DNA from: a virus
Taxonomy: Duplodnaviria > Caudoviricetes
IMG/VR virus record: IMGVR_UViG_3300028792_000003
Location: 1-64,000 of that record
DNA: 64,000 bases
Reading direction: 5' to 3' (one strand)
Shown here: positions 2,230 through 53,710 of the stretch, in pieces
Numbering within the stretch: position 1 is the first letter of the stretch
Layout of the letters: each line of letters starts with the position of its first letter
Made by a program: the position numbers and the translations under genes
The notes under the pieces: model-generated
The model's database searches: none
The model's input: only the letters and a program-made list of their open reading frames with translations
Told to the model about the DNA's origin: nothing

Positions 2230-3684
2230 ATGGCAGGCGTCGTCGTCACTGCCCAAGCGCAGGCCGCTCCGAACTCGGCTGCTCAGGCGCTCCCGGGGCA
2301 GGTGTTCATGGTGGGCCTCGCGGAGCGGGGCGACACCACCAAGCCGATCAAGATCAGTTCGCTCGCGGAGGCGCAGAGCCTTCTGGGCAACCGGGTCACC
2401 TACGGTTCGCTGTACGACCAGTTGCAGACCTTCTTCGCTGAGGGTGGCAAGCAGGCGTACGTGGCCCGGGTGGTCGGTGCTTCGTCTACGTCCGGGTCGC
2501 TCACCCTGTCCGACCGGGCCGGTAGCCCGGTGGCGACGTTGAAGGTCGATGCCGCGAACCCGGGCTCGTGGTCCACCAACATCACCGTGGAGGTGAAGAA
2601 CGGCGGTCTTCCCAACACCTTCCGGATGATCGTCACTCTGGCCGGGGTCGTGGTCCACGACTTCAACAACATCTCCAGCCCGTCCGAGGCCGTCCAGCGG
2701 TTCAACGGGTCGCCCTACGTCAACGTGTCCAACCTGGGCAGCGCGACGTCCTCCCCGAACAACAACCCCGCCGTGGTCGCAGCCACCAACGCGTCCGGTG
2801 GAAACGACCAGCGTGGATCGGTGTCTGCCACCGACTACGTGACTGCTCTGGCCCGGTTCAGCCCGGACCTGGGCACGGGTGCGGTCTGTATCCCGGGTCA
2901 GGGGAACGCCACCGTCTGGCAGGGCCTGATCACTCACGCGGAAGTCAACAATCGCATCGCTCTTCTGGCGAACCCGATTGCGTCTTCCGTCACGGACTAC
3001 ACGTCAACGGCGGACGACTACTCCAGCCCGTCTGCTGGCATGTTCGGCCCGTGGGTGATCATCCCGGATGGTGCCGGTGGTAGCCGGACGATCTCTCCGG
3101 AGGGCTACGTCGCTGCGGCTCGTGCCCGTGCCATCGACCAGATCGGACCGTGGCGGGTGCCTGCTGGCTCCCTGTCCCGGGCCAACTTCATCCAGGGGCT
3201 GGAGGTCGTCTACTCCGACAACGACATGAACACGCTGGAGGCGGGCAACGTCTCCCCGATTCGTTTCGTTGCAGGTTCCGTTCGTCTTTACGGCTGGGCG
3301 TCTCTGTCCACCGACGACACGAACTGGCAGTACCTGAAGGAGCGCGACCTTCTCAACTGGATGATCTACGAGACGGAGCGCCGCCTGGAGGACTACACCT
3401 TCGAGACGGTGGACGCCAAGGGTCGGCTGATGGCCGACATCAAGGGCGCGCTGACGGCGATGTGCGAGCCGATTGCCACGGCTGGTGGTCTCTACCAGAA
3501 CATCAACCACGCCACGGGAGAGGTAGTCGATCCCGGCTACGTCGTGATCATCGACGGCACCGTCAACACTCCGCAGACCCTGAGCCAGAACCGGGTCAAC
3601 GCGGAACTCAAGGTCCGAGTCAGCCCGACCGCTGGCCTGATCACCATCCAGATCACGAAGACCGGCCTGCTTCAGTCCTTCTGA
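2230..3684 (+). CDS. Contractile tail sheath protein
   Basis: 484 aa; 'FMVGLAERG', 'FFAEGG..AYVARV', 'ANPGSW', 'VRLYG', 'WQYL..R' sheath motifs. Confidence 0.9.
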   Translation: MAGVVVTAQAQAAPNSAAQALPGQVFMVGLAERGDTTKPIKISSLAEAQSLLGNRVTYGSLYDQLQTFFAEGGKQAYVARVVGASSTSGSLTLSDRAGSPVATLKVDAANPGSWSTNITVEVKNGGLPNTFRMIVTLAGVVVHDFNNISSPSEAVQRFNGSPYVNVSNLGSATSSPNNNPAVVAATNASGGNDQRGSVSATDYVTALARFSPDLGTGAVCIPGQGNATVWQGLITHAEVNNRIALLANPIASSVTDYTSTADDYSSPSAGMFGPWVIIPDGAGGSRTISPEGYVAAARARAIDQIGPWRVPAGSLSRANFIQGLEVVYSDNDMNTLEAGNVSPIRFVAGSVRLYGWASLSTDDTNWQYLKERDLLNWMIYETERRLEDYTFETVDAKGRLMADIKGALTAMCEPIATAGGLYQNINHATGEVVDPGYVVIIDGTVNTPQTLSQNRVNAELKVRVSPTAGLITIQITKTGLLQSF

Positions 3685-3716
3685 GGCACCTTCACTGAGA
3701 GAGGAAGTGCAACGAA

Positions 3717-4127
3717 ATGAGCGACAAGTCCGCACAGCGTCAATTTCTCGTGAAGGTTCACGGGATCGACGGCTACTGGATGACCAAGACTGGTGGTGAC
3801 ATCACGGCGTCCACGTCGAAGATCTACGACGGTGGAGAACTCAACCCTGATGTCCTGGCCGGTCCTGCGGAGGCGTCCAACGTCACCGTGACCCGGGGCT
3901 ACGCCTACGACCGTGACGCGGTGATGATCAAGACGCTGAAGAAGCAGGTCGGATCGGCCACCCTGGACATCACGGTCACTCCGCTGGCTCGGGACATGTC
4001 GGCGCTGGCCAGCCAGTCCGACTACCCGAAGGCTCTCCTGGTCGGTCTGATCGAGCCGGAGCCGGATGCCCAGTCCGGTGACCCGGGGATCGTGTCCCTG
4101 GAGTTCGCCATCTCGAACTTCTCCTAG
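3717..4127 (+). CDS. Tail tube protein
   Basis: 136 aa immediately after the sheath; 'NVTVTRG' motif like T4 gp19-type tubes. Confidence 0.8.
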   Translation: MSDKSAQRQFLVKVHGIDGYWMTKTGGDITASTSKIYDGGELNPDVLAGPAEASNVTVTRGYAYDRDAVMIKTLKKQVGSATLDITVTPLARDMSALASQSDYPKALLVGLIEPEPDAQSGDPGIVSLEFAISNFS

Positions 4128-4143
4128 GTTCGGGCGCAGAACC

Positions 4144-4232
4144 CCGTGAGTGGCCCTCTGACAGCCTGAAGCACTTTCAGGGTAGGACGATGGCTAGATG
4201 GGCTTCCTAGGGCCTCAGAGAGCCACTCACGG
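4144..4232 (+). terminator. Long intergenic hairpin after the tube gene (terminator or processing site)
   Basis: CCGTGAGTGGC...GCCACTCACGG inverted repeat enclosing CTCTGA/TCAGAG. Confidence 0.5.
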
Positions 4233-4331
4233 TCTTCCACCGGCACAACCAGCAGCGCACCCAAGCAACAGGACCAGCACCATCAATGCAGCACATCATC
4301 CAGCAATACCAAGTAAGAGGGGTCTAGCAAC

Positions 4332-4910
4332 ATGAGCGAGAACACTGACTTCAAGTTCAGCGGTGTCAATGACGACGACGAGCAGACGAGCGCTCCCAGC
4401 AACTGGGACAGCCTGCACGACTCCGCTGACAACCAGCCGGACAGCATGTACGACCTGATCCGGACGCAGTTGGCCAAGCCTGCCGGGCTGGAGCCGCTAG
4501 TGCTTCCGGTGACCACGCGCCCCGGGGTCAGCCTGAAGTTCGACGTCGCACTCGATGTCGATCTGTTCCAGGCGTGGGTGAAGCGGGCCACGAACCGGCG
4601 CACCAAGCAGACCAGCGCACGGCACCTCGCCAACACGGTGCTGTCGAACCTGCACCGGGGCACGCTGATGAACGGCAAGGAGGTCTTCACCCCGAGCGGC
4701 GACCCCCTGGTGATTCCCATGGACGAGTTCGCCCAGTTGGTCGGCAACACAATCGGCGGGGTGGGCCAGACGATCACGAAGTTGTACGGAAGTGATGGCT
4801 TCGTGCTCCAGCACATGCGCAAGATTCTCGACGCCGCTGGCCTGGGTGACGAGGAAGAGGACTGGTCCGACGAGTTCAGCGACGAGGACAGCGGCCCTTT
4901 CGAGAACTGA
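4332..4910 (+). CDS. Tail assembly chaperone (gpG-like)
   Basis: Between tube and tape measure; acidic C-terminus; slippery heptamer before the stop. Confidence 0.75.
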   Translation: MSENTDFKFSGVNDDDEQTSAPSNWDSLHDSADNQPDSMYDLIRTQLAKPAGLEPLVLPVTTRPGVSLKFDVALDVDLFQAWVKRATNRRTKQTSARHLANTVLSNLHRGTLMNGKEVFTPSGDPLVIPMDEFAQLVGNTIGGVGQTITKLYGSDGFVLQHMRKILDAAGLGDEEEDWSDEFSDEDSGPFEN

Positions 4911-5095
4911 TCGACCGGCTGAAGGAAGACGGACGGATCATACAGGCGGCGGTGGTGGCTGACCGGTTCAAGGTTGACCCCATCGCCGTCCTCCGTACGG
5001 GATACTTCGACTGGGCACTACGGGTCGCATCACTGGAAGTCGTGGTGGGCCTGGAGCGCAAGGCACACGAGAAAGCCAACCGGGGCAAGCAGTAG
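4895..5095 (+). CDS. -1 frameshift extension of the tail assembly chaperone (gpGT-like)
   Basis: C CCT TTC (XXXYYYZ) at 4895-4901; the -1 frame is open to TAG at 5093-5095 (PFRELIDRLKEDGRIIQAAVVADRFKVDPIAVLRTG...). Confidence 0.8.
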   Translation, partial: PFRELIDRLKEDGRIIQAAVVADRFKVDPIAVLRTGYFDWALRVASLEVVVGLERKAHEKANRGKQ

Positions 5096-5113
5096 CAGCA
5101 GAGGGAGACGAGG

Positions 5114-8110
5114 GTGACCGACGCACCTGGCGACAACACGGAGCAGTACATCCTCCGGGTCGCCCTCGAAAACGCCCTGACCGGCGAGGCGAAGGTCGTA
5201 GAGGCATCCATCGACCGGGTTACCCACGCAAGCGAGAAGGCCACCGCTGCGTCGGAAGGCATGGACCGTCAGAACAAGAAGACCAAGCGGTCCCTGACGG
5301 AAGAGGCGCTGGCGGCTGAGGCTGCGGCCAGGGGCACCAAGCAGTTCGGTGACGAAGCGGCCAAGGCCGCGATCAAGTCGAAGATGCTGGAGCGGCAGAA
5401 CAAGAAGACGGAGAAGTCCTTCCTGGGCTTCATCAAGTTCGGCTTCTCGTTCGAAAAGTTGTTCAAGGCATACAAGATCTACGTCATCGGAGACGCGCTC
5501 CAGTTCGTGGCCACCGCCATCAACGGGCTGGGATCGGCCGGTATTGCTGCCATCGGTGGACTGGCACCGCTGAGCGGGATGCTCGCTGCGTATCCGGGTC
5601 TGCTGGCCGCAGGTGCACAAGGCATGGCGGCATTCAAGATCGGCATGTCCGGGATGGGTCCGGCGCTCCAGACGATCCTGAACCCGACCAGCACCATCGA
5701 CCAGGTGTACAAGTCGATGCACAACATCTCGGCCAACGGCCGGATGGTGCTGATCACGATTGCCAAGATTCACAAGTCCTGGCTCGGAGTCAGACAGTCC
5801 ACCCAAGATGCTCTGTTGAAGGACATCGCTCCCACCATCCGCGACCTGGCTCAGACGTACCTGCCGACCTTGCAGAAGGAACTCGGGGCAACCGCGACCG
5901 AACTGAACAAGGTCGCGCACCGCACCGCGAACTGGCTGAACGACCCTCGGGTGGCCAAGTCGATGGACGGCCTGATGGGCAGCAACGCCAAGGTGGTGGG
6001 CAATCTCGGTGGTGCTGCCTTCGGTGGCATGCGGATGCTGGTGAATCTGCTGATCGCAGCGGAGCCGTTGACTCAGCACATCAGTCACGACATGGCGAGC
6101 ATGACGAACAACCTCGCCAACACCATGCGGGACCACCGGTCAGGCATCCGTGAGTGGTTGCTCGGATCGTACGACTTGTGGAAGAAGACCTGGGCCGTGG
6201 TCAAGGACTTCGGCATCGGCATGTTCAACATCTTCAAGGCGAGCAAGCCACTCAGCAAGGCGATGGGTGAAGACCTCGGCACGGTTGCCAAGAACTTCCG
6301 GGACTGGACGGAATCCGACGAGGGCCGGAAGAAGATGCATGACTTCTTCGAGAAGCAGATCCCGGTGGTCCGCGAACTCGGCAAGTGGATCATCGACATC
6401 GGCAAGCAGTGGTTCCGGCTGACGGACAACACCAAGGGCTTTCTGAAGACCAGCGGAATGCTCAGGACGCACCTCTTGCCGGACCTGGTGACGGTGGCCA
6501 ACAGCATGGCGGGCAAGTTCCTCCCGTCGCTTGTGCAGATCGTGGACGCCTGGGCCAGATCGCCGTTTGCTACCTCTGCGCTGTCGAACGCGATCAGCAT
6601 GTTCGCCACCAGCCTGGACTTCATCCTGCGCACCATCGAGAAGATGCCTGCACCGATGCAGACCCTGCTGGGTAACATGCTCACGCTGTCGTTGTTCTTC
6701 AAGATGCAGCCGGAGTTCATCAAGGGCATAGCACAGGCACCGTTCAAGATGATCGGGGACAAGATCAAGGAACACCTGACGGACAAGTTCGCAGAGATGA
6801 CCACCAGCATGAAGGTCGCTCGTGGTGCTGCCGGGCTGGGCGGGTTGATCCTGCTGATGTCCAACTTCGGTGACCAGAGCACTACCGCAGGCAAGGCGGT
6901 CAATACTGCTGCGCACGTAGCCGGTGCTGCCATGCTCGGCTTCGCAGTCGGCGGCCCATGGGGTGCTGCCATTGCAGGAGCCGTTGACTTGACCTATGAA
7001 CTCGCTGCCAAGTGGTTGAACGTCAAGCACAACATCAATGAGGCAGGTCTGAAGGCCAAGGACTACGCGGGCACGCTGGACAGCATCACTGCCAAGATCA
7101 CTCAGCAGACCAAGATGCAGGTTGCACAGGACTTGCAGAAGAGTGGAGTGTTCAACACTGCGGAGAAGTATGGCATCAGCGACAAGTTGGTGCTCAACTC
7201 TGCGATGGGCAACTACGCGGCACAACACAAGTTGGCCAGACAGATGCGCAACGTCGGTGCCCGAGGTGGACAGGCGTTGATCGACATGCAGGACATGACC
7301 GGAGCCGTAGGTCTGACCCGAGGCAGCCTGCGAAGCAGCGTGGAAGCACAGCGACAGGTGATGGACGCGCTGGGCACGTCGAAGAAGTACGCGGGTGACC
7401 TGTCCACGCAGATGGGCGGTGCCGGGGACGCTGGTCAGCGGCTGGTTGACGAACTCACTGGTGGCAACAAGAAGATGCAGCACATGGTCACCGGGGCCGG
7501 AGACCTGAACGCGTTGCTGGGCAACACCAGTGGCACGAGGCGGCAGAATCACATGTTGATCACCATGAAGACGAACATCAACAACATGGTCAGGGCCGCG
7601 CAGGGATATGTGAATCTGATCGGTGGAGGCGTCCTGGGAATCGGCAGCGCAGGGTTACCGAACCAAAGCACTCTTCCGTCGTACTCGTACTTCACTGGTG
7701 GTACGCACCCGGGTGGTCGGGCATTGGTCGGTGAACTCGGTCCCGAGGCTGCCATCGACCGTTACGGCAAGATCAGCATGCTGGGCATGAACGGTCCGGA
7801 GATCACCCGTCTGGGAGCCGGAACCGCCATCATCCCGGCGTCTGCCACCGCCGATCCCTACGGCGGTGCCACCGGCAAGGCACCGGGATGGGCCGTGAGC
7901 GCGCTCCAGCGGGCCTACGACGGTGCAGTTGGCACTGGGACGCATGACACGGCTTACCGGCCCGCAGGGGGCCACACAGGGCCGATGGTGCACAACGACG
8001 TCCGAGTCACCATGCCGATTCAGACGGTGGGTAGCGACTTCGACGCCGAGAGTGCCGTCAGGCGGGCGTGGATGAAGATCCAGCAGGAGACAGAGGAGCG
8101 TGCGCTGTGA
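5114..8110 (+). CDS. Tape measure protein
   Basis: 998 aa, Ala/Gly-rich and helical; C-terminal 'LVGELGPEA' motif; follows the chaperone. Confidence 0.9.
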   Translation: MTDAPGDNTEQYILRVALENALTGEAKVVEASIDRVTHASEKATAASEGMDRQNKKTKRSLTEEALAAEAAARGTKQFGDEAAKAAIKSKMLERQNKKTEKSFLGFIKFGFSFEKLFKAYKIYVIGDALQFVATAINGLGSAGIAAIGGLAPLSGMLAAYPGLLAAGAQGMAAFKIGMSGMGPALQTILNPTSTIDQVYKSMHNISANGRMVLITIAKIHKSWLGVRQSTQDALLKDIAPTIRDLAQTYLPTLQKELGATATELNKVAHRTANWLNDPRVAKSMDGLMGSNAKVVGNLGGAAFGGMRMLVNLLIAAEPLTQHISHDMASMTNNLANTMRDHRSGIREWLLGSYDLWKKTWAVVKDFGIGMFNIFKASKPLSKAMGEDLGTVAKNFRDWTESDEGRKKMHDFFEKQIPVVRELGKWIIDIGKQWFRLTDNTKGFLKTSGMLRTHLLPDLVTVANSMAGKFLPSLVQIVDAWARSPFATSALSNAISMFATSLDFILRTIEKMPAPMQTLLGNMLTLSLFFKMQPEFIKGIAQAPFKMIGDKIKEHLTDKFAEMTTSMKVARGAAGLGGLILLMSNFGDQSTTAGKAVNTAAHVAGAAMLGFAVGGPWGAAIAGAVDLTYELAAKWLNVKHNINEAGLKAKDYAGTLDSITAKITQQTKMQVAQDLQKSGVFNTAEKYGISDKLVLNSAMGNYAAQHKLARQMRNVGARGGQALIDMQDMTGAVGLTRGSLRSSVEAQRQVMDALGTSKKYAGDLSTQMGGAGDAGQRLVDELTGGNKKMQHMVTGAGDLNALLGNTSGTRRQNHMLITMKTNINNMVRAAQGYVNLIGGGVLGIGSAGLPNQSTLPSYSYFTGGTHPGGRALVGELGPEAAIDRYGKISMLGMNGPEITRLGAGTAIIPASATADPYGGATGKAPGWAVSALQRAYDGAVGTGTHDTAYRPAGGHTGPMVHNDVRVTMPIQTVGSDFDAESAVRRAWMKIQQETEERAL

Positions 8111-21759: not shown

Positions 21760-22356
21760 CTACCCCTGCGCCTTCTTCGCCGCCTTCTTCGCGGCACGGG
21801 TCGCGGCAGCCTTGGAGGCCGGGGTCGGCTCACGGAGCACCCAGGTCTGCTCGATGGTGTAGCCACGAGCCATCAGCCGGTGCACCAGCCCGGACATCAG
21901 CGCCGGGGCGTTGACCGGCTTGCCGTCCGTGGACTTGATCGTCTTGGCCACCTTGGCGGCGACCTCCGCACGGGACGAACCGCCTTCCAGCATCAGGTTG
22001 ACGATGGTTTCCGAGTTGGAGCCCTTCACGAAGCCGTGCTCGTTCATGTCCCGGGGCAGCGACCGGCCAGAGGTGCCCTTGGCGACCTTCTTGGTGGGGC
22101 GCTTCTTCGCGGTCGTGGTGCTGGCCTTCTTGACCGAGCGCTTCTTGGCCGGAGCCGTCTTGGCAGGAGCAGTCGTCTTGGCCGCAGCCTTCTTGACGGT
22201 GTGCTTCTTCTTCTTGGGGGTGACCACTGCCGGAGCACCAGCAGCGGTGTCGTCACCCTTGGCCGAGAACTCCACTGACGGGGCGATCTTCTTCTTCGCG
22301 GTCTTCTTCGCCGGGCGCTTCTTGGGAGCCGGTCCGACCTTCTTGGCAGGTGCCAT
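21760..22356 (-). CDS. Histone H1-like Lys/Ala-rich DNA-binding protein with a globular C-terminal domain
   Basis: PAKK/AKK repeats; ATG at 22356 with AGAGG SD and a promoter-like sequence upstream. Confidence 0.75.
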   Translation of the reverse strand: MAPAKKVGPAPKKRPAKKTAKKKIAPSVEFSAKGDDTAAGAPAVVTPKKKKHTVKKAAAKTTAPAKTAPAKKRSVKKASTTTAKKRPTKKVAKGTSGRSLPRDMNEHGFVKGSNSETIVNLMLEGGSSRAEVAAKVAKTIKSTDGKPVNAPALMSGLVHRLMARGYTIEQTWVLREPTPASKAAATRAAKKAAKKAQG

Positions 22357-47684: not shown

Positions 47685-48242
47685 ATGAGCAACACCGTGG
47701 TGAGAACTGTCGTCATAGGCATTGACCCTTCGTCCAAGAAGATCGCCGCCACTGTCACAGTCAACGGAGCGGAACCAACCCTGCGTATCAGGCCGCTGCC
47801 CACCGGCAGGCGAGACACGCCCCGGCAGTTGTTTCTGGCCGGTCGCTGGTTCCGCCGACTCATCATGGAGTTCGACCCGCAGAGCAATGACGTATATGTC
47901 TACATCGAGAACCCGTTCGTGTCTCCGAAGACGATCCGGGCATGCCTGCCACTGGCCCGGATGCACGGACATCTGATGGCCACCGCTTACGCATGTGGAG
48001 TCAAGGTCGTTGACGGGGTGGACATCAGCCGGTGGAAGTCGGTTTCCATCGGCAAGGGCAACGCATCCAAGACGGAGATCATGGCGTGGGTGCGCAAGTG
48101 CTGGCCCCAGGCCGCAGAGCAGGTCGGCAAGGACCAGGACAAGGCAGACTCGGCTGGGATCAACGTGTACGGCCAGCACATGGTGAAGCAGATCAAGAAG
48201 ATCGAACGACTGAAGGAGAAGAACAGTGCCGACCAAGGCTAG
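47685..48242 (+). CDS. RuvC-like Holliday junction resolvase
   Basis: 'VIGIDPS', 'YIE', 'WK....GKGNASK', 'D.ADS'. Confidence 0.85.
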   Translation: MSNTVVRTVVIGIDPSSKKIAATVTVNGAEPTLRIRPLPTGRRDTPRQLFLAGRWFRRLIMEFDPQSNDVYVYIENPFVSPKTIRACLPLARMHGHLMATAYACGVKVVDGVDISRWKSVSIGKGNASKTEIMAWVRKCWPQAAEQVGKDQDKADSAGINVYGQHMVKQIKKIERLKEKNSADQG

Positions 48243-49734
48243 TGGGACCAAGGGCAAGAAGAAGGACAGCGATCCTCAGTTCGCCATCATCAAGACCGAA
48301 CTCGTTCCGTTGGCAGACCTGCGGATGTACTACAAGAACCCCCGTGTCGGTAATGTCAACGAGGTGGCCAAGAGCCTGCACGTGAACAGCCAGTTCAAGC
48401 CGGTAGTTGTGAACGTTGGTACGCACACCGGGCGGGACAACGAGATCCTGGCTGGCAACCACACGTTCAAGGCCGCTGGCAAGGAACTCCAGTGGGTCGA
48501 GGACGGCGAGACCTACGAGAAGCCCACCTGGACGCATATCTGGGCGTCGTTCGTAGACGTGGACGAGGACGCTGCCAAGCGCATCGTGCTCGCTGACAAC
48601 GCGACTGCCGACAAGGGCGAGTACGACGAGAAGTTGCGAGCGGAACTCCTGCTGGACCTCCCGAACGTCAGTGGTACCGGCTACACCCTGGACGAGTTCG
48701 AGGACATCAAGGCCGACTTCGGTGACTTCGGTGACGACATCGACTTGTCCGAGGACGGCGAAGACCTCGAATCCATGATGGACGACGAGGACTACGAGGA
48801 GCAGCCCAAGGGAAAGCGGTTCGCGGACACCGAACTTGGCGACGAGATCGACGCCGAGGAGGACGAGTCTCCGATCAGCAACCGCGAGCGGCTGAAGATC
48901 AAGGAAGAGACCGGCATCGACATCGCCAAGCAGTCGGAGGAACTCGGTGGTGTCCTCCAGTTGGACGACTCGCCGTTCTTCGACTACGTGAAGGTCGGTA
49001 CCGGCGAACTCCAGTTCCAGTTGCCCCGGTACCTTCCCGAGATGTTGGTGCAGACGTCCGACCTGCCGGAGAAGTGGTCGGCCTGGGCGGGTAGCGCCAC
49101 CCGGGACAAGCCGGAGAACGAAGACCCCGATCACTGGTGGCTCTACAACTACGGGGTGGACAGCACTTCCGGCATGGAGCACGTCGCCAACTCGTTCGTG
49201 TCCTTCTTCACCTTTGACGAGTACTTCGAGCGGTGGTGGGACGCTCCATCCAAGTACGTCGCCAAGTTGATCAATAGCAAGGTCAAGTACGCGGTCACGC
49301 CTGACTTCTCGTCGGTCAGCGAAATGGGCAACACGTTCTGCCTGTGGCAGATCTACCGGCAGATGTACCTGGGCCGGTACTTCCAGGAGGCGGGCATCAA
49401 GTTGCTGCCGCACGTGATCTGGCCGGATGGCGACATGGAGTTCCTGGAGAACATCACCCTGGCTGCCCTGCCGGACGAGGTTCCGGTGCTGATGCTCCAG
49501 TTGCAGACCATTGACGAGAAGAACGTCGCGGGTGGCATCCAGCACTTCAAGGACCAGGTGCAGAAGATCATCAAGACGGTCAACCCCGAGACGCTCGTCG
49601 TCTACGCGGGCAAGCCGGGGCTGGAGTTCGTCCAGTCGCTCAACCTGCATGGCAGCGACCTGCGGTGGCTGAACACCCGGCAGGCCGCACTGTCGGAGTC
49701 CATGAAGGGCCGCACCAAGAAGACCGGCCTCTGA
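48226..49734 (+). CDS. ParB/Srx-like N-domain fused to a DUF4417-like domain
   Basis: 'KNPR....VAKSL...F.P.VV...ILAGNH' and 'LADN' (ParB); 'FF..D..FER.W', 'TPDFS', 'WQIYR...Y.Q..GI' (DUF4417). Confidence 0.7.
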   Translation: MPTKASGTKGKKKDSDPQFAIIKTELVPLADLRMYYKNPRVGNVNEVAKSLHVNSQFKPVVVNVGTHTGRDNEILAGNHTFKAAGKELQWVEDGETYEKPTWTHIWASFVDVDEDAAKRIVLADNATADKGEYDEKLRAELLLDLPNVSGTGYTLDEFEDIKADFGDFGDDIDLSEDGEDLESMMDDEDYEEQPKGKRFADTELGDEIDAEEDESPISNRERLKIKEETGIDIAKQSEELGGVLQLDDSPFFDYVKVGTGELQFQLPRYLPEMLVQTSDLPEKWSAWAGSATRDKPENEDPDHWWLYNYGVDSTSGMEHVANSFVSFFTFDEYFERWWDAPSKYVAKLINSKVKYAVTPDFSSVSEMGNTFCLWQIYRQMYLGRYFQEAGIKLLPHVIWPDGDMEFLENITLAALPDEVPVLMLQLQTIDEKNVAGGIQHFKDQVQKIIKTVNPETLVVYAGKPGLEFVQSLNLHGSDLRWLNTRQAALSESMKGRTKKTGL

Positions 49735-49772
49735 TCAACAACACCATCCGCCAGTGGAAGGCAACTAACAAC

Positions 49773-50663
49773 ATGACGACGTTCAACAACATCGAAGAGT
49801 CACCCACCGGGAAGATCGGGCGGAAGAAGTCCGATGTCACCATCCTGGGGGTTCCGTTCGACCTCGCCAGTACCAACCACTCCGGTCAGCGAAATGCGCC
49901 GTACCGGATTAGGGATGCCGGGTTCTGGGACGAGGGCATGTACACCACCCAGCACGGCGTTGACCCGTTGCAGGCCCTGGAGGTGGTGGACGCCGGGGAC
50001 GTGGAGATCATCCCCGGAGACACTCTGGGCGGCTGGCAGGCCATCCAGGACGCCGCTGCGCAGATCTACGCCAACACCCGGTGCCTGATCAGTATCGGAG
50101 GGGACCACTCGATCACGGCGAAACTGCTGGCGGGCATCGTGTCCATCGAGCGTGACCCCGTGACGGTGTTCCACTTCGACGCGCACTGGGACTACTGGCA
50201 GCACGACGCCGGGGTGGAGATGAACCACGGCACCTGGGTCCGCTACGTCATCGACAACGGGCTGGCCAACCGGGTGGTCCAGTTCGGGGTACGAGGCTGG
50301 GGCGTCCCCAAGACCGATGCCGCGTGGGCCGTGAAGAACGACATCACCACGTACCACGCTTCCAGCCGGTGGATGGACAGCCTGGTCGCGGAGATCAAGG
50401 ACACCAGCGACCCGATCTACCTGTCCATCGACGTGGACGTGCTGGACCCGGCGTTCGCTCCGGGGGTCGCCTATCAGGAGCCGGGCGGTTGGACCACCAG
50501 AGAACTCTTCGGTGCGATCAAGGCCGTCGCAGGTTCGGGGAAGATGATCGGTGCCGACGTGGTGGAGGTGATCCCCGACCGCGATCCCACCGGGCAGACG
50601 GTGAAGGTGGCCAACAGATGCGTTGCTCAGTTGCTCACCAGCATCGCCGCTACCCGGAAGTGA
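49773..50663 (+). CDS. speB: Agmatinase-like ureohydrolase
   Basis: 'GVPFD', 'DAGD', 'GGDHS', 'FDAHWD', 'HGT', 'SIDVDVLDPAFAPG', 'DVVEV.P'; all metal ligands present. Confidence 0.85.
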   Translation: MTTFNNIEESPTGKIGRKKSDVTILGVPFDLASTNHSGQRNAPYRIRDAGFWDEGMYTTQHGVDPLQALEVVDAGDVEIIPGDTLGGWQAIQDAAAQIYANTRCLISIGGDHSITAKLLAGIVSIERDPVTVFHFDAHWDYWQHDAGVEMNHGTWVRYVIDNGLANRVVQFGVRGWGVPKTDAAWAVKNDITTYHASSRWMDSLVAEIKDTSDPIYLSIDVDVLDPAFAPGVAYQEPGGWTTRELFGAIKAVAGSGKMIGADVVEVIPDRDPTGQTVKVANRCVAQLLTSIAATRK

Positions 50664-50795
50664 CCGGGAAGTCAACGCACTGATTCAACGTGTCGTGGAA
50701 GACGCGTGTCGGGTTCCTTGTACGGTGGTGCGCCACAGGAGAAACTTGCACCAGTTGTTACGGCGAACCCCGTCGTACCCCGAAAGGAGAAAGTC

Positions 50796-51131
50796 GTGAT
50801 CGAGGACTTCATGCTCGACACCGACGACGACGCGCTCGTCGTTTCCGGCGCTGCCACTCGTGGTGGCGGTGGTGGTGGTTCCGCCAAGAAGGCTGCCAAG
50901 CGTGGTGGCGGTACTCGTGCCCGCAAGGCCGCGAAGAAGACCACGGCCCGTCGTGGTGGCTCCACTGCCAAGAAGACGGCCAAGAAGGCTGCCAAGAAGG
51001 TCGGTCGCGCTCCGGCTCGTCCCGCCAAGAAGGCCGCGAAGAAGGTCGGTCGTCCCGTCAAGCGGACCGCCGCCAAGAAGGTCGCCAAGAAGGCCGTGAA
51101 GAAGACCGCTCGCCCCCGCAAGCGGGCTTGA
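50796..51131 (+). CDS. Histone/protamine-like basic protein with a short acidic leader
   Basis: GAAAGGAG SD and GTG start; 'MIEDFMLDTDDDALVVSGAATRGGGGGG' followed by AKK repeats. Confidence 0.8.
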   Translation: MIEDFMLDTDDDALVVSGAATRGGGGGGSAKKAAKRGGGTRARKAAKKTTARRGGSTAKKTAKKAAKKVGRAPARPAKKAAKKVGRPVKRTAAKKVAKKAVKKTARPRKRA

Positions 51132-51164
51132 TCCACCGGCACCATCGCAATACCGCACCCACGA

Positions 51165-51204
51165 GAAGGGCGCTCTGGCCTAGCAACAGCCGGAGCGCCC
51201 TTCC
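51165..51204 (+). terminator. Terminator-like hairpin
   Basis: GAAGGGCGCTC...GAGCGCCCTTC followed by CTCTTT. Confidence 0.55.
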
Positions 51205-51233
51205 TCTTTCCCTAGTGAAGAAAGACGAACAAC

Positions 51234-51638
51234 ATGACCAACATCAGACACGAGGAAGCGCTGGACGCCATGTTCGTGCTTCCGCCTGAACTACTGGAGC
51301 AGTTCGGGCCGGACGACACCCACGAGCGCTGTGCCGTTCTGCTGGGCCACCGGGACCGGGGCAAGTTCGTGATCACCGACGTTGTGGAGGTCGCCAACGA
51401 CGCGACGGACACCACGTCCACGTTCGCCATCAAGGCGGGCTCGATCAAGCGTGCGGTGCGCAAGGGCCGGGGGGTCTTCCTCGGCGTGCTGCACACACAC
51501 TGGGAATCGACCACCTACCCGTCGATCAACGACGTGCAGAACATCCCGCGTGGCTGGATCGGCTGCGTGCTCCACACCAAGACAAGAACAATCACTTACT
51601 ACACCCGCTCTGGGTACGTGACGGAGGTTCACCCCTGA
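51234..51638 (+). CDS. JAB/MPN+ (JAMM) metalloprotease
   Basis: 'ERCAVLLG' and 'HTH.......S..D' (HTHWESTTYPSIND) JAMM motif. Confidence 0.85.
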   Translation: MTNIRHEEALDAMFVLPPELLEQFGPDDTHERCAVLLGHRDRGKFVITDVVEVANDATDTTSTFAIKAGSIKRAVRKGRGVFLGVLHTHWESTTYPSINDVQNIPRGWIGCVLHTKTRTITYYTRSGYVTEVHP

Positions 51639-52552
51639 TGCAGAAGACCGAGTACAAGAACGGTGAGGACTGGGTTAAGTTCAGCGTCCCCGACGAGGAC
51701 GGGGAGCCAGAGCAGTGGATGGTCCAGTCCAACTTCCTGCTGTCGAACTGGACGTGCATCTACGGACAGGGGTGCCCGGGTCTGACTCCCGCAAACGAGA
51801 ACCGCTACTTCGATGACATCGGCTGTTGCAAGTTGGGGTTCTGGTTCACCGACATCGAGGACTACGAGAAGGTCGAGAAGCAGATCAAGAACCTGTCCAA
51901 AGAGGACTGGGACGACGAACTGCGTCAGTACGTTGACAAGAACGGCTGGGCGAACATCTACAGCATCGACCGGGACAACGACGAGATCAACGGCAAGTCG
52001 AAGGTCACCGACTTCGGGTGTGTGTTCGCCAACCGCAACACGGGCAGCGTCGGATCGACCGGCAAGACCGGATGCGCGTTCCACCACCTCGCCGCCAGGA
52101 CCGGCCAGGACCACGTGGACGTGATGCCCCAGGTCTGCTGGCAGTTGCCCATCAAGTACGAGTTCGATGACGACAACGACCGGCACGTCATTCAGCCCTG
52201 GACCGTGGACCAGTGGGGCGGGGAGGACGAGGAAGGCTCACACGACCACATCATGTGCTGGTGGTGCACAGAGACGCCCGACGCCTACGTGGGCAGCAAG
52301 CCTGTGCTGGCAGCCATGGAGCACGAACTCCGGGAGATCATGGGCGACACGGCGTACGACGAGATGGTCCGGGTGCTGAACGCCCGACCCAAGCCCGCAC
52401 CGATGCCGGGGTCCGTCACCAACGACGGCAGGCCGATGATCCCGCTGCTGATCGGCAACCGGGAACCGTACAAGGCACCATCGGCAACCAGCACTCCCGC
52501 AGTGATGAAGAAGATGAAGGAGACCGGCAATGTCGTCGTCCCAGGTTCCTAG
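51638..52552 (+). CDS. Cys-rich DUF3109/YkgJ-like putative Fe-S or Zn protein
   Basis: 'C....C', 'GCC', 'CVF', 'GCAFH', 'P.VCWQLP', 'CWWC'; TGATG-coupled to the JAB gene. Confidence 0.65.
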   Translation: MQKTEYKNGEDWVKFSVPDEDGEPEQWMVQSNFLLSNWTCIYGQGCPGLTPANENRYFDDIGCCKLGFWFTDIEDYEKVEKQIKNLSKEDWDDELRQYVDKNGWANIYSIDRDNDEINGKSKVTDFGCVFANRNTGSVGSTGKTGCAFHHLAARTGQDHVDVMPQVCWQLPIKYEFDDDNDRHVIQPWTVDQWGGEDEEGSHDHIMCWWCTETPDAYVGSKPVLAAMEHELREIMGDTAYDEMVRVLNARPKPAPMPGSVTNDGRPMIPLLIGNREPYKAPSATSTPAVMKKMKETGNVVVPGS

Positions 52553-52735
52553 TCCCGCAGACGATGCCGCCAAGAAGCGGATGGCGGCACTGACACTCGC
52601 GGTGCTGCACCACGCATCGTCCAACCTGGCAGAAAGGGCTGTCCCTCCGGGGTGGCAGACCGTCGTGGACACCGCCGACGGGTTCCTGGACTACATCAAC
52701 ACCGGCAACAAGCCGCAGCAGACAAGAGGAAGGCG

Positions 52736-53200
52736 ATGATCATCACCATGGCCGAGCAGCACTGGCACGACCACGAGACGGAGCACACCACCCTCTACGG
52801 CCAGTTGGTCTGTCCTACCAACTGTCATTACGCCGGAAAGGACAGATTGTGGGAGACGGACATTGACGAACTGAAGGAGTGCGTCGCTGCTGCCCGTCAT
52901 CTTCGTCCGACCAAGCACACAAGAAGTCAGTGCTTGACGGCAAGGTTCGACCCACGTCCGGCGGAAGAGCAGCAACCTGACCTGGTTAACCACCCGCCGC
53001 ACTACACCGGGAACGCCAACGGGGTCGAGTGCATCGACGTCGTGGAAGACCTGGGGTTCTGCATCGGCAACGCGATCAAGTACCTGTGGCGTGCCGACGA
53101 GAAGGACAACGCGCTCCAGGATCTACAGAAGGCGCGCTGGTACATCGACCGGGAGATCAACCGCCGCGAACGCCGCCAGTCTGGCGATAGCGGCAAGTAG
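52736..53200 (+). CDS. DUF3310 (SaV-like) protein
   Basis: 'VNHP.HY...ECID...FC.GNAIKYLWRA..K...DL.KA.WY'. Confidence 0.8.
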   Translation: MIITMAEQHWHDHETEHTTLYGQLVCPTNCHYAGKDRLWETDIDELKECVAAARHLRPTKHTRSQCLTARFDPRPAEEQQPDLVNHPPHYTGNANGVECIDVVEDLGFCIGNAIKYLWRADEKDNALQDLQKARWYIDREINRRERRQSGDSGK

Positions 53201-53260
53201 ACCAGCATCACTCAATAACAACCAATCATTCAACAACAACCAGTGGGGAGCCTTATCCAA

Positions 53261-53710
53261 ATGACTAGCACGAGCCTGATCGACACCAAGAGCCCGAACA
53301 AGACCGCCTGCGTGGACAACGGCAAGCACAAGTGGCAGGTCGCTCGCATCCGGGGCACCAAGGTCCGCCACCAGTGCGCCAAGTGCCTGCACATGGACAG
53401 GTGGGTCCAGACGGCCAACTCCGGCAAGGTCACCGTCCAGAAGAACAGCAAGCCGCAGCCCGTGAACGCCACCAAGCAGAACTCCTTCACGGACGAGCCG
53501 GGGAAGGTCACCAAGTTGACCGGTTCCAACTCGGTGCACGAGCACCTCGGTGACAGCACGTCGCAGATCTTCAAGGACTACGCCGCCACGTTGACCGTCA
53601 CGGAGTTGCGCGAGAAGGCCAAGAAGCACGGCCTGACCGGCTACTCGAAGATGAAGAAGGACGACCTGATCACGGCCCTCACCACGGCGCAGCCCGTGCA
53701 GACGGCCTAG
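53261..53710 (+). CDS. Zn-ribbon + Rho-N-terminal-like domain protein
   Basis: 'TVTELREKAKKHGLTGYSKMKKDDLITAL'. Confidence 0.65.
   Translation: MTSTSLIDTKSPNKTACVDNGKHKWQVARIRGTKVRHQCAKCLHMDRWVQTANSGKVTVQKNSKPQPVNATKQNSFTDEPGKVTKLTGSNSVHEHLGDSTSQIFKDYAATLTVTELREKAKKHGLTGYSKMKKDDLITALTTAQPVQTA

Follow-up and report, generated by a model that had tools for sequence, protein, structure and literature searches.

Minimal JAMM proteases, among them Cap3 of the cyclic-oligonucleotide-based anti-phage signalling system (CBASS), the deubiquitinase of Bil systems, archaeal JAMM1/desampylase and Mec+, all cut after a small-residue (Gly/Ala) tail. The internal proteins of phage T4 carry a capsid-targeting sequence that is cleaved off, and they offer the second of two viral parallels for the locus described here. 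The first is the adenovirus protease (AVP, or adenain), which trims histone-like core precursors at (M/I/L)XGX↓G or (M/I/L)XGG↓X (arrows denote the bond that is cut; PMC4246237). In this study we describe a phage locus that encodes, in succession, a basic protein with an acidic N-terminal leader, a JAMM (JAB) zinc metalloprotease and a cysteine-rich protein of the DUF3109 family. The locus lies in the stretch of DNA analysed here (the window), which spans 64,000 nucleotides and is the first 64 kb of the complete 91.8-kb IMG/VR virus record IMGVR_UViG_3300028792_000003. The window has a GC content of ~61% and a gene repertoire like that of actinobacterial phages, and its genes and proteins are predictions read from the sequence of an uncultured phage.

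The DUF3109 family (PF11307, now named Rv0495c) is scarcely mentioned in the literature that we searched. In vivo work on one member, DpdM, has shown that it methylates the nitrogen of the aminomethyl group of dPreQ1 in phage DNA; the protein has been described as a homologue of YkgJ with two metal sites lined by cysteines (bioRxiv 10.1101/2023.04.13.536721). FliB, which methylates lysines of flagellin at nitrogen, has a CX4CX3CC motif, eight conserved cysteines and a [4Fe-4S] cluster (PMC8598068).

We propose that the basic protein is a precursor, that the JAB protease together with the DUF3109 protein would remove its leader at a conserved junction, and that the mature polycation would then coat or condense DNA. 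We assign this reading a probability of roughly 0.45.

A basic protein with an acidic leader

The first gene of the locus (50796–51131, + strand) encodes 111 amino acids. Its GTG start at 50796 lies 6 nucleotides after a Shine-Dalgarno-like AAGGAG (50784–50789), and an in-frame ATG follows at 50811, from which translation would still retain the acidic segment. The leader, MIEDFMLDTDDDALVVSGAA(T), occupies 50796–50855; its 20 residues include five Asp and one Glu, carry a net charge of −6 and end in VVSGAA, the local form of a junction motif that is the candidate cleavage site. The remaining 91 residues (50856–51128) form a Gly/Arg-rich linker and an Ala/Lys-rich tail with 24 Lys, 13 Arg, 22 Ala, 13 Gly and neither Asp nor Glu, for a net charge of +37. 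The sequence-only reading of this DNA, an earlier note made by a model without database searches, had described just such an acidic leader ahead of a purely basic tail, and it had counted one RGG at the leader and two in the tail; three RGG are indeed present, at residues 22, 36 and 53. Lysine makes up 22% of the protein (24/111) and is encoded by AAG in 24 of 24 cases.

The protein is predicted to be disordered (Atlas model, predicted local distance difference test (pLDDT) 0.33) and matches no profile in Pfam, PHROG or NCBIfam. Among its homologues only that of phage ChisanaKitsune matches a profile, Pfam HC2 (PF07382), and does so below threshold (19.3 bits versus a cut-off of 40). The predicted resemblance to H1, Hc2 and protamines is therefore one of composition only, without the globular domain of H1 or HU.

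Direct searches return almost nothing for such a protein. A tblastn search against phages found no match, and a word search of 5.8 billion proteins found nothing at E≤0.001. An exhaustive phmmer search of 1.8 billion representatives returned a single protein, P0009, which we rejected as a homologue: it is a repeat protein of 1398 amino acids whose SLSTDDGPFVVSDEATIEGG repeats resemble the leader by chance. Scanning IMG/VR with a DNA pattern of the leader recovered phage GMA6 together with a single match that arose by chance within an unrelated open reading frame (ORF; L095). Homologues of the basic protein were thus reached by gene position only, by way of the neighbouring DUF3109 gene.

A second Ala/Lys-rich protein is encoded elsewhere in the window (21760–22356, − strand). 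This protein of 198 amino acids, whose gene came to light through 72 nucleotides with 76% DNA identity to part of the basic tail, begins MAPAKKVGPAPKK and has no acidic leader. It probably has a small folded C-terminal domain, for which the Pfam match, to CdrL_M, is sub-threshold only. As predicted from its sequence, this gene shows that the window phage also makes an AKK-rich protein that lacks a leader.

A conserved three-gene phage module

With DUF3109 as a handle we collected ten distinct Gordonia phages from GenBank, six IMG/VR loci and 80 metagenome loci. A basic gene, a JAB gene and a DUF3109 gene are adjacent in nine loci: the window, phages ChisanaKitsune, GMA6, Gray and UBSmoodge, and contigs L005 (IMGVR_UViG_3300008116_000323), L006, L007 and L014. 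The main lineages among them share only 30–36% identity in DUF3109 and range from 40 to 61% GC. The basic gene always comes first, while JAB and DUF3109 exchange places between loci, and in seven loci (the four named phages, L005, L006 and L007) the trio follows genes for RuvC and for a ParB-like nuclease domain fused to DUF4417. The L014 contig is 1.9 kb long; its start falls within an AKK-rich tail, after which come DUF3109 and JAB. The pair in the window is part of a conserved phage module of three genes, for which a literature search found no previous description. The association of basic gene and JAB, as the sequence-only reading had noted it for the window, is present in every relative of this clade that was inspected.

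Two loci differ in detail. L005, at 40% GC, retains the full synteny over positions 2476–6168 (RuvC, ParB-DUF4417, leader-bearing basic protein, DUF3109, JAB). L007 carries an HNH endonuclease gene (1841–2428) directly upstream of the basic gene, where other loci have ParB-DUF4417.

In a quick maximum-likelihood tree the nine DUF3109 proteins linked to the trio fall into one clade (support of 99 in the Shimodaira-Hasegawa-like approximate likelihood ratio test), which also includes the subgroup P0022/P0023. A far-removed branch holds the DUF3109 proteins of two further contigs, L009 and L010.

Conservation of the leader and its junction

Eight copies of the basic protein are complete (window, GMA6, ChisanaKitsune, Gray, UBSmoodge, L005, L006 and L007), and in all eight a start supported by a ribosome-binding site (RBS) lies upstream of the leader. 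Leaders are 20–25 residues long with net charges of −2 to −9, and they hold all of the acidic residues of each protein. Tails are 50–101 residues long, carry net charges of +23 to +41, have no Asp or Glu, and are similar between loci in composition only. The tail of the L005 protein is rich in Arg rather than Lys, and its leader is weakly acidic (net −2).

Leader identity between Gordonia-phage lineages is 60–68%, compared with 46–48% for JAB and 59–70% for DUF3109 in the same pairs, so that in these alignments the leader is conserved as strongly as the enzymes. The leader is conserved and translation starts upstream of it, which is the opposite of the two sequence patterns (a leader that is not conserved, or a start after the acidic segment) that the sequence-only reading had named as speaking against itself.

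The feature common to all lineages is a hydrophobic-x-Gly-(Ala/Ser)-(Gly/Ala) motif where leader and tail meet. It reads V/I-x-G-A-G/A in 7 of 8 copies and ASGSG in the eighth, the forms being VVSGAA (window), VVEGAG, TVEGAG, AVEGAG, IDGAG and ASGSG, and the Gly/Arg-rich stretch begins after it. Other N-terminal copies of the motif were not found in the proteins of the window phage. The sequence-only reading had instead placed the emphasis on RGG, which ranges from zero to four copies per basic protein and is missing from GMA6. Because it is not conserved, we rejected RGG as a specific JAMM site; the element that is retained is the junction.

That reading also supposed that the leader holds a protamine in check by charge. 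A charge of −2 to −9 cannot mask one of +23 to +41, and a charge mask is therefore implausible. A part in recognition, targeting or solubility would fit better.

These comparisons also bear on whether the basic ORF is a gene at all. If it were a by-product of a GC-rich repetitive stretch, long ORFs might be expected in several frames and on both strands, as are found over 50670–51290, and the lack of a true homologue in word-based and HMMER searches would be explained. However, a protein made of leader and tail occupies the same position in eight other loci, one of them in a phage of 40% GC, and in the window the ORF is preceded by an RBS, its Lys codons are all AAG and a terminator-like hairpin follows right after its stop. 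Because the architecture of leader and tail recurs in eight phage loci, including the one at 40% GC, it does not look like the chance outcome of a GC-rich frame; we take the ORF to be real, and consider the likelihood that it is spurious to be negligible.

Mass spectrometry (MS) of GMA6 virions lists only three major proteins, orf20, orf29 and orf43 (PMC4524720, S5 Table). This result is uninformative about the basic protein, and tryptic MS would in any case hardly detect AKK-rich proteins.

An intact JAMM protease

The second gene (51234–51638, +) encodes a protein of 134 amino acids that scores 35.4 bits against Pfam Prok-JAB (PF14464; cut-off 25 bits; 34.9 bits in the search of the whole genome). 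Its JAMM (MPN+) motif is complete, with E31, H87-x-H89 and S97-x-x-D100 matching E...H-x-H-x7-S-x2-D, and these catalytic residues are invariant in nine homologues. The model (pLDDT 88.7) has the JAMM/MPN fold, and Foldseek aligns it at a probability of 1.0 with Cap3 (9ild), 8tyx, 5ld9/5lda and AMSH; the best solved matches are Cap3 bound to CD-NTase (9ild), a bacterial deubiquitinase acting on ubiquitin-like (Ubl) proteins (8tyx), PfJAMM1 and AMSH. Profile comparison likewise matches it to solved JAMM proteins. P0002, at 48% identity, is its only close relative, and pattern scans of viral contigs for the JAB found nothing; a wider alignment of JAB sequences offered no segment suited to such a scan. 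The sequence-only reading was right that an intact JAMM protease is encoded next; the two genes are not contiguous, being separated by a 102-nucleotide spacer that contains a hairpin.

Searches of the complete 91.8-kb phage found no match to an E1 enzyme (ThiF, PF00899) or to a Ubl protein of ThiS/MoaD type (PF02597). Cap3, solved in complex with CD-NTase (9ild), targets the C-terminal tail of CD-NTase rather than a separate ubiquitin-like protein.

The same observations enter into another reading, also put forward from sequence, in which the JAB is an anti-defence deconjugase that counters conjugation of the host CBASS Cap2 or Bil type. We add that the Lys-rich protein could then be a decoy or protected target. 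The closest folds and defence-library profiles are those of Cap3-type JABs and the bacterial Ubl deubiquitinase, and the phage has neither an E1 nor a Ubl of its own. The profile matches are weak, however, at 19.6 bits against the Cap3 equivalog with its cut-off of 200 and 27.5 bits in PADLOC. A fixed context of three genes within a DNA-metabolism block would not be expected of such a protein across divergent phages, and nothing ties DUF3109 to conjugation. Genomic context thus adds no support to this role, in spite of the Cap3 fold match, and we consider it improbable.

A cysteine-rich DUF3109 partner

The third gene (51638–52552, +) encodes a protein of 304 amino acids with eight invariant cysteines, including a C-x5-C...CC arrangement. 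All 78 homologues that were collected carry the precomputed label PF11307, as do 100% of its Atlas neighbours. Local Pfam searches did not match the window protein to PF11307 directly, and matched 4 of 20 aligned relatives (best E 9.5e-07). Its model is confident (pLDDT 85.7), and Foldseek found no match to it in the PDB at E≤0.001. VIA-align gave a best Z of 3.1, and a few SET-domain rows at Z 2.5–2.7 are far below a meaningful level, so that we draw nothing from them. The eight cysteines probably carry an Fe-S cluster or Zn.

Most bacterial members are ~50–80 residues shorter than those of the phage-type clade, which has a conserved extension at the C terminus (PMPG ... N-x-G-R-P-[LM]-[LI]-P-L) that is missing from most of the shorter bacterial proteins. 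No other clade was seen in an operon with a JAB gene. Net charge, which we tested as a hint of a basic substrate, does not discriminate, because phage proteins are as acidic as bacterial ones.

A role like that of DpdM is excluded for the window protein, because TGT/DpdA, QueC and QueD (PTPS) have no match in the complete phage genome and the 7-deazaguanine pathway is thus lacking.

A methylation chemistry of another kind would refine, rather than replace, removal of the leader by the JAB. In this scheme, which resembles the biosynthesis of ribosomally synthesized and post-translationally modified peptides (RiPPs), the leader would recruit the DUF3109 protein, which would N-methylate Lys or Arg residues of the tail (RGG/AKK) before the JAB removes the leader. 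DpdM acts on a primary amine, that of dPreQ1; the substrate of DpdM is absent from this phage, in which the neighbouring protein is 22% Lys; FliB, a lysine N-methylase, has eight cysteines as the window protein does; and an order of precursor, leaky terminator and enzymes resembles RiPP operons. Homology to FliB or YkgJ is nevertheless undetected: a search with PF03692 (FliB/YkgJ, CxxCxxCC) found no match to the DUF3109 protein at E≤10, and hhalign against E. coli YkgJ gave a probability of 0.3% and aligned only a C-[IV]-[FY]-x-N-R patch. The indirect assignment to PF11307, the missing PDB fold match and the failure of acidity to separate phage from bacterial members likewise count against the scheme, which we regard as unlikely. 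A fuller version, drawn by analogy, seems to us less probable again. The leader would dock the precursor on a JAB–DUF3109 complex, the DUF3109 protein would methylate the tail by means of an Fe-S or Cys cluster, and the JAB would clip V-x-G-A↓G; by extension, actinobacterial Rv0495c/DUF3109 proteins would be lysine methyltransferases for tails of the HupB/HBHA type.

Operon layout and a model for precursor maturation

In the window, the spacer of 102 nucleotides between the basic gene and JAB contains a GC-rich hairpin of 15 base pairs followed by a C/U-rich tail (51165–51213, +), an arrangement like that of a terminator or attenuator. A scan for consensus terminators missed this hairpin, which folding reveals (z −3.3). 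Strong GC-rich hairpins follow the basic gene in 9 of 9 loci, in spacers of 66–113 nucleotides that are unrelated in sequence, and most of the nine are followed by a U-rich run. JAB and DUF3109 are joined far more closely. The JAB stop overlaps the DUF3109 start in the window (TGATG), and across loci their junction ranges from an overlap of 104 nucleotides to a gap of 27. Such a layout is expected where a structural product is made in abundance and the enzymes encoded after it are co-translated in small amounts.

According to the model proposed here, gene 1 would yield an intrinsically disordered DNA-coating protein, with its Gly/Arg-rich linker and its Ala/Lys-rich tail resembling the C-terminal domain of H1 or a protamine, made as a precursor with an acidic/hydrophobic leader of 20–25 residues. 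The hairpin after gene 1 would ensure much precursor and little enzyme. JAB and DUF3109, co-translated, would act jointly on the precursor, with JAB cutting at hydrophobic-x-Gly-(Ala/Ser)↓(Gly/Ala), which is VVSGA↓A in the window phage, and so releasing a fully basic protein. The leader would most likely be a handle for recognition or targeting (to the enzymes, the capsid or a replication compartment), or an element that promotes solubility and prevents aggregation.

The model builds on observed features, namely which genes are present, the intact motifs, the conservation of linkage and of the leader, and the hairpins; from them we infer leader cleavage and its site, DNA coating and the role of DUF3109. 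Several considerations favour removal of the leader. The linkage is conserved across loci, and the leader is conserved as strongly as an enzyme. The junction consists of small residues of the kind accepted by Gly-Gly-type peptidases, and no other protein of the phage has the motif at its N terminus. The usual JAB substrate is absent, since the phage has no E1 or Ubl, and Cap3 sets a precedent, as a minimal JAB whose site of action is the C-terminal tail of the target itself.

Other observations weigh against the model. The bond cut by characterized JAMM enzymes mostly follows a C-terminal Gly that belongs to a folded ubiquitin-like domain; a leader of 20 amino acids is no such domain. The window leader aligns only loosely with MLND-type leaders (29–43% identity). 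The linkage rests on about nine inspected loci. Because a terminator-like hairpin lies between them, the basic gene and JAB possibly belong to different transcription units, and the layout equally allows two separate units.

Enzyme genes are also found apart from the trio. Bacterial DUF3109 genes occur without a JAB. Apart from L014, none of the metagenome loci (79) contained a JAB according to a JAB profile built from the trio sequences; the DUF3109 ORF was located in 62 of these (32 with at least 600 bp on both sides). Seventeen metagenome loci have P0022 or P0023, two members of the trio clade, as their nearest listed homologue, and no JAB match was found in their flanks. In L041 (Ga0207667_10021465), a chromosomal DUF3109 gene of that clade (3477–4226) lies between pheS and a gene for an RNA methyltransferase of SpoU/TrmH type, near rpmI, with no JAB or basic gene nearby. 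In L009 (3822–4905) and L010 (4959–6087), genes for a related JAB and for DUF3109 are convergent neighbours, and no basic gene with a leader was seen close by; the enzyme pair can thus work without a leader-bearing substrate. In both contigs the pair sits between a lysis cassette and a probable small-terminase-like gene, the cassette comprising an M15-type peptidase and holin-like proteins that bear short AKK tails.

These gene arrangements suggest that JAB and DUF3109 form a functional pair in its own right, with the basic precursor a constant companion in one large phage clade. The idea of the JAB and the basic protein as a unit, with which the sequence-only reading began, survives to the extent that the two are linked; the JAB is coupled most tightly to DUF3109, and it occurs without the basic gene in a distant lineage.

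A self-contained enzyme pair could act elsewhere, on a host or phage protein or on a small molecule, and the basic protein would then be a mere conserved neighbour whose leader stays in place or is removed by another protease. Such a leader would be a motif for interaction, targeting or auto-regulation, and uncleaved acidic tails are well known to modulate basic proteins that bind DNA, as in HMGB1 and T7 gp2.5. L009 and L010 fit this possibility, as do the hairpin present in each locus between the basic gene and the enzyme genes and the tight coupling of JAB to DUF3109 rather than to the basic gene. It leaves unexplained, however, why the basic gene keeps its constant place immediately upstream across lineages of ~30% identity in which the order of the enzymes is shuffled, and why small residues of the kind cut by Gly-Gly-type peptidases stand at the end of the leader. 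We find an independent enzyme pair possible but doubtful, and prefer leader removal by the JAB.

Genes surrounding the module

The three genes sit within a DNA-metabolism block. Upstream, on the + strand, are genes for a RuvC-like resolvase (47685–48242), which serves as a conserved anchor of synteny, and for the ParB-like nuclease domain fused to DUF4417 (48226–49734), the conserved neighbour of the module. An arginase-family, agmatinase-like gene (49665–50663, +), whose true start is probably downstream of 49665, separates the latter from the basic gene. It scores 167.9 bits against the agmatinase equivalog, just below the cut-off of 174.3. No such gene is present at the equivalent position in L003–L007, L011 or L012. 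Because it was seen only in the window phage among the loci examined and is missing from all of these relatives, we rejected it as a core part of the module. Should the gene encode an agmatinase, the putrescine that the enzyme forms would add a second counter-ion for DNA to the polycationic protein. Downstream of DUF3109 are genes for a DUF3310 protein (52652–53200, +; PHROGs label 'nucleotide kinase') and a Rho_N/SAP-domain protein (53243–53710, +), neither of which is kept beside the trio in relatives.

Comparison with known systems

If the proposed maturation is correct, the JAB would be, to our knowledge, the first JAMM peptidase that matures the precursor of a non-ubiquitin-like substrate, and the locus would be the first phage counterpart of the adenovirus-type maturation of a DNA-condensing core protein. 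It would also give a concrete substrate to the large DUF3109/Rv0495c family, which includes a member in Mycobacterium tuberculosis. Even if the mechanism differs, a polycation whose acidic leader is strictly conserved, and which is encoded by a separate gene bounded by a terminator, is probably an abundant participant in the way these phages handle DNA. The trio is present in cultured Gordonia phages (GMA6, ChisanaKitsune, Gray and relatives), which makes the system accessible to experiment.

Adenovirus pVII and pre-Mu, with AVP, are the closest parallel. They too combine a virus-encoded DNA-condensing protein, an N-terminal propeptide and a viral peptidase of deubiquitinase-like specificity, and the AVP site pattern matches the phage junction V-x-G-A-G/A. 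The peptidases differ: AVP, from a eukaryotic virus, is a cysteine protease of clan CE, whereas the phage candidate is a JAMM zinc peptidase with a Cys-rich partner. The likeness concerns a possible way of working, with no homology implied.

CBASS Cap3, the Bil deubiquitinase, archaeal JAMM1/desampylase and Mec+ share with the window JAB the fold and a complete E...HxH...S-x-x-D zinc site. In contrast to these enzymes, the window JAB scores far below family cut-offs, and its phage has no E1/E2 or ubiquitin-like partner. They also cut at a C-terminal tail, whereas the proposed phage bond would be internal, near the N terminus of a disordered protein.

Gene 3 lies in the neighbourhood of PF11307, and its product has eight invariant cysteines, as reported for DpdM and FliB; unlike DpdM, it belongs to a phage with no 7-deazaguanine pathway, and a link to FliB or YkgJ is undetectable for it. 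The precursors of RiPPs and of double-glycine bacteriocins likewise have a short acidic/hydrophobic leader that ends in Gly-(Gly/Ala/Ser), then a hairpin and then processing enzymes. Here, however, the 'core' is a polycationic tail of 50–100 residues and the peptidase is a JAB rather than a C39 enzyme; we saw neither a C39 peptidase/ABC exporter nor a RiPP recognition element in the phage.

With the tails of the actinobacterial nucleoid proteins HupB/Hlp and HBHA, chlamydial Hc2 and the C-terminal domain of H1, the basic tail shares an AKKA/PAKK composition, the lack of acidic residues and a presumed non-specific binding to DNA. None of these proteins is known to have a cleavable acidic leader, and the phage protein differs in turn by having no globular domain of HU or H1. 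In mycobacteria, Ala/Lys-rich tails of the HupB/HBHA type carry methyl-lysines. The maturation of viral precursors and JAMM peptidases are thus of known kinds; what is new here is the conserved trio in which they would meet, including its DUF3109 protein.

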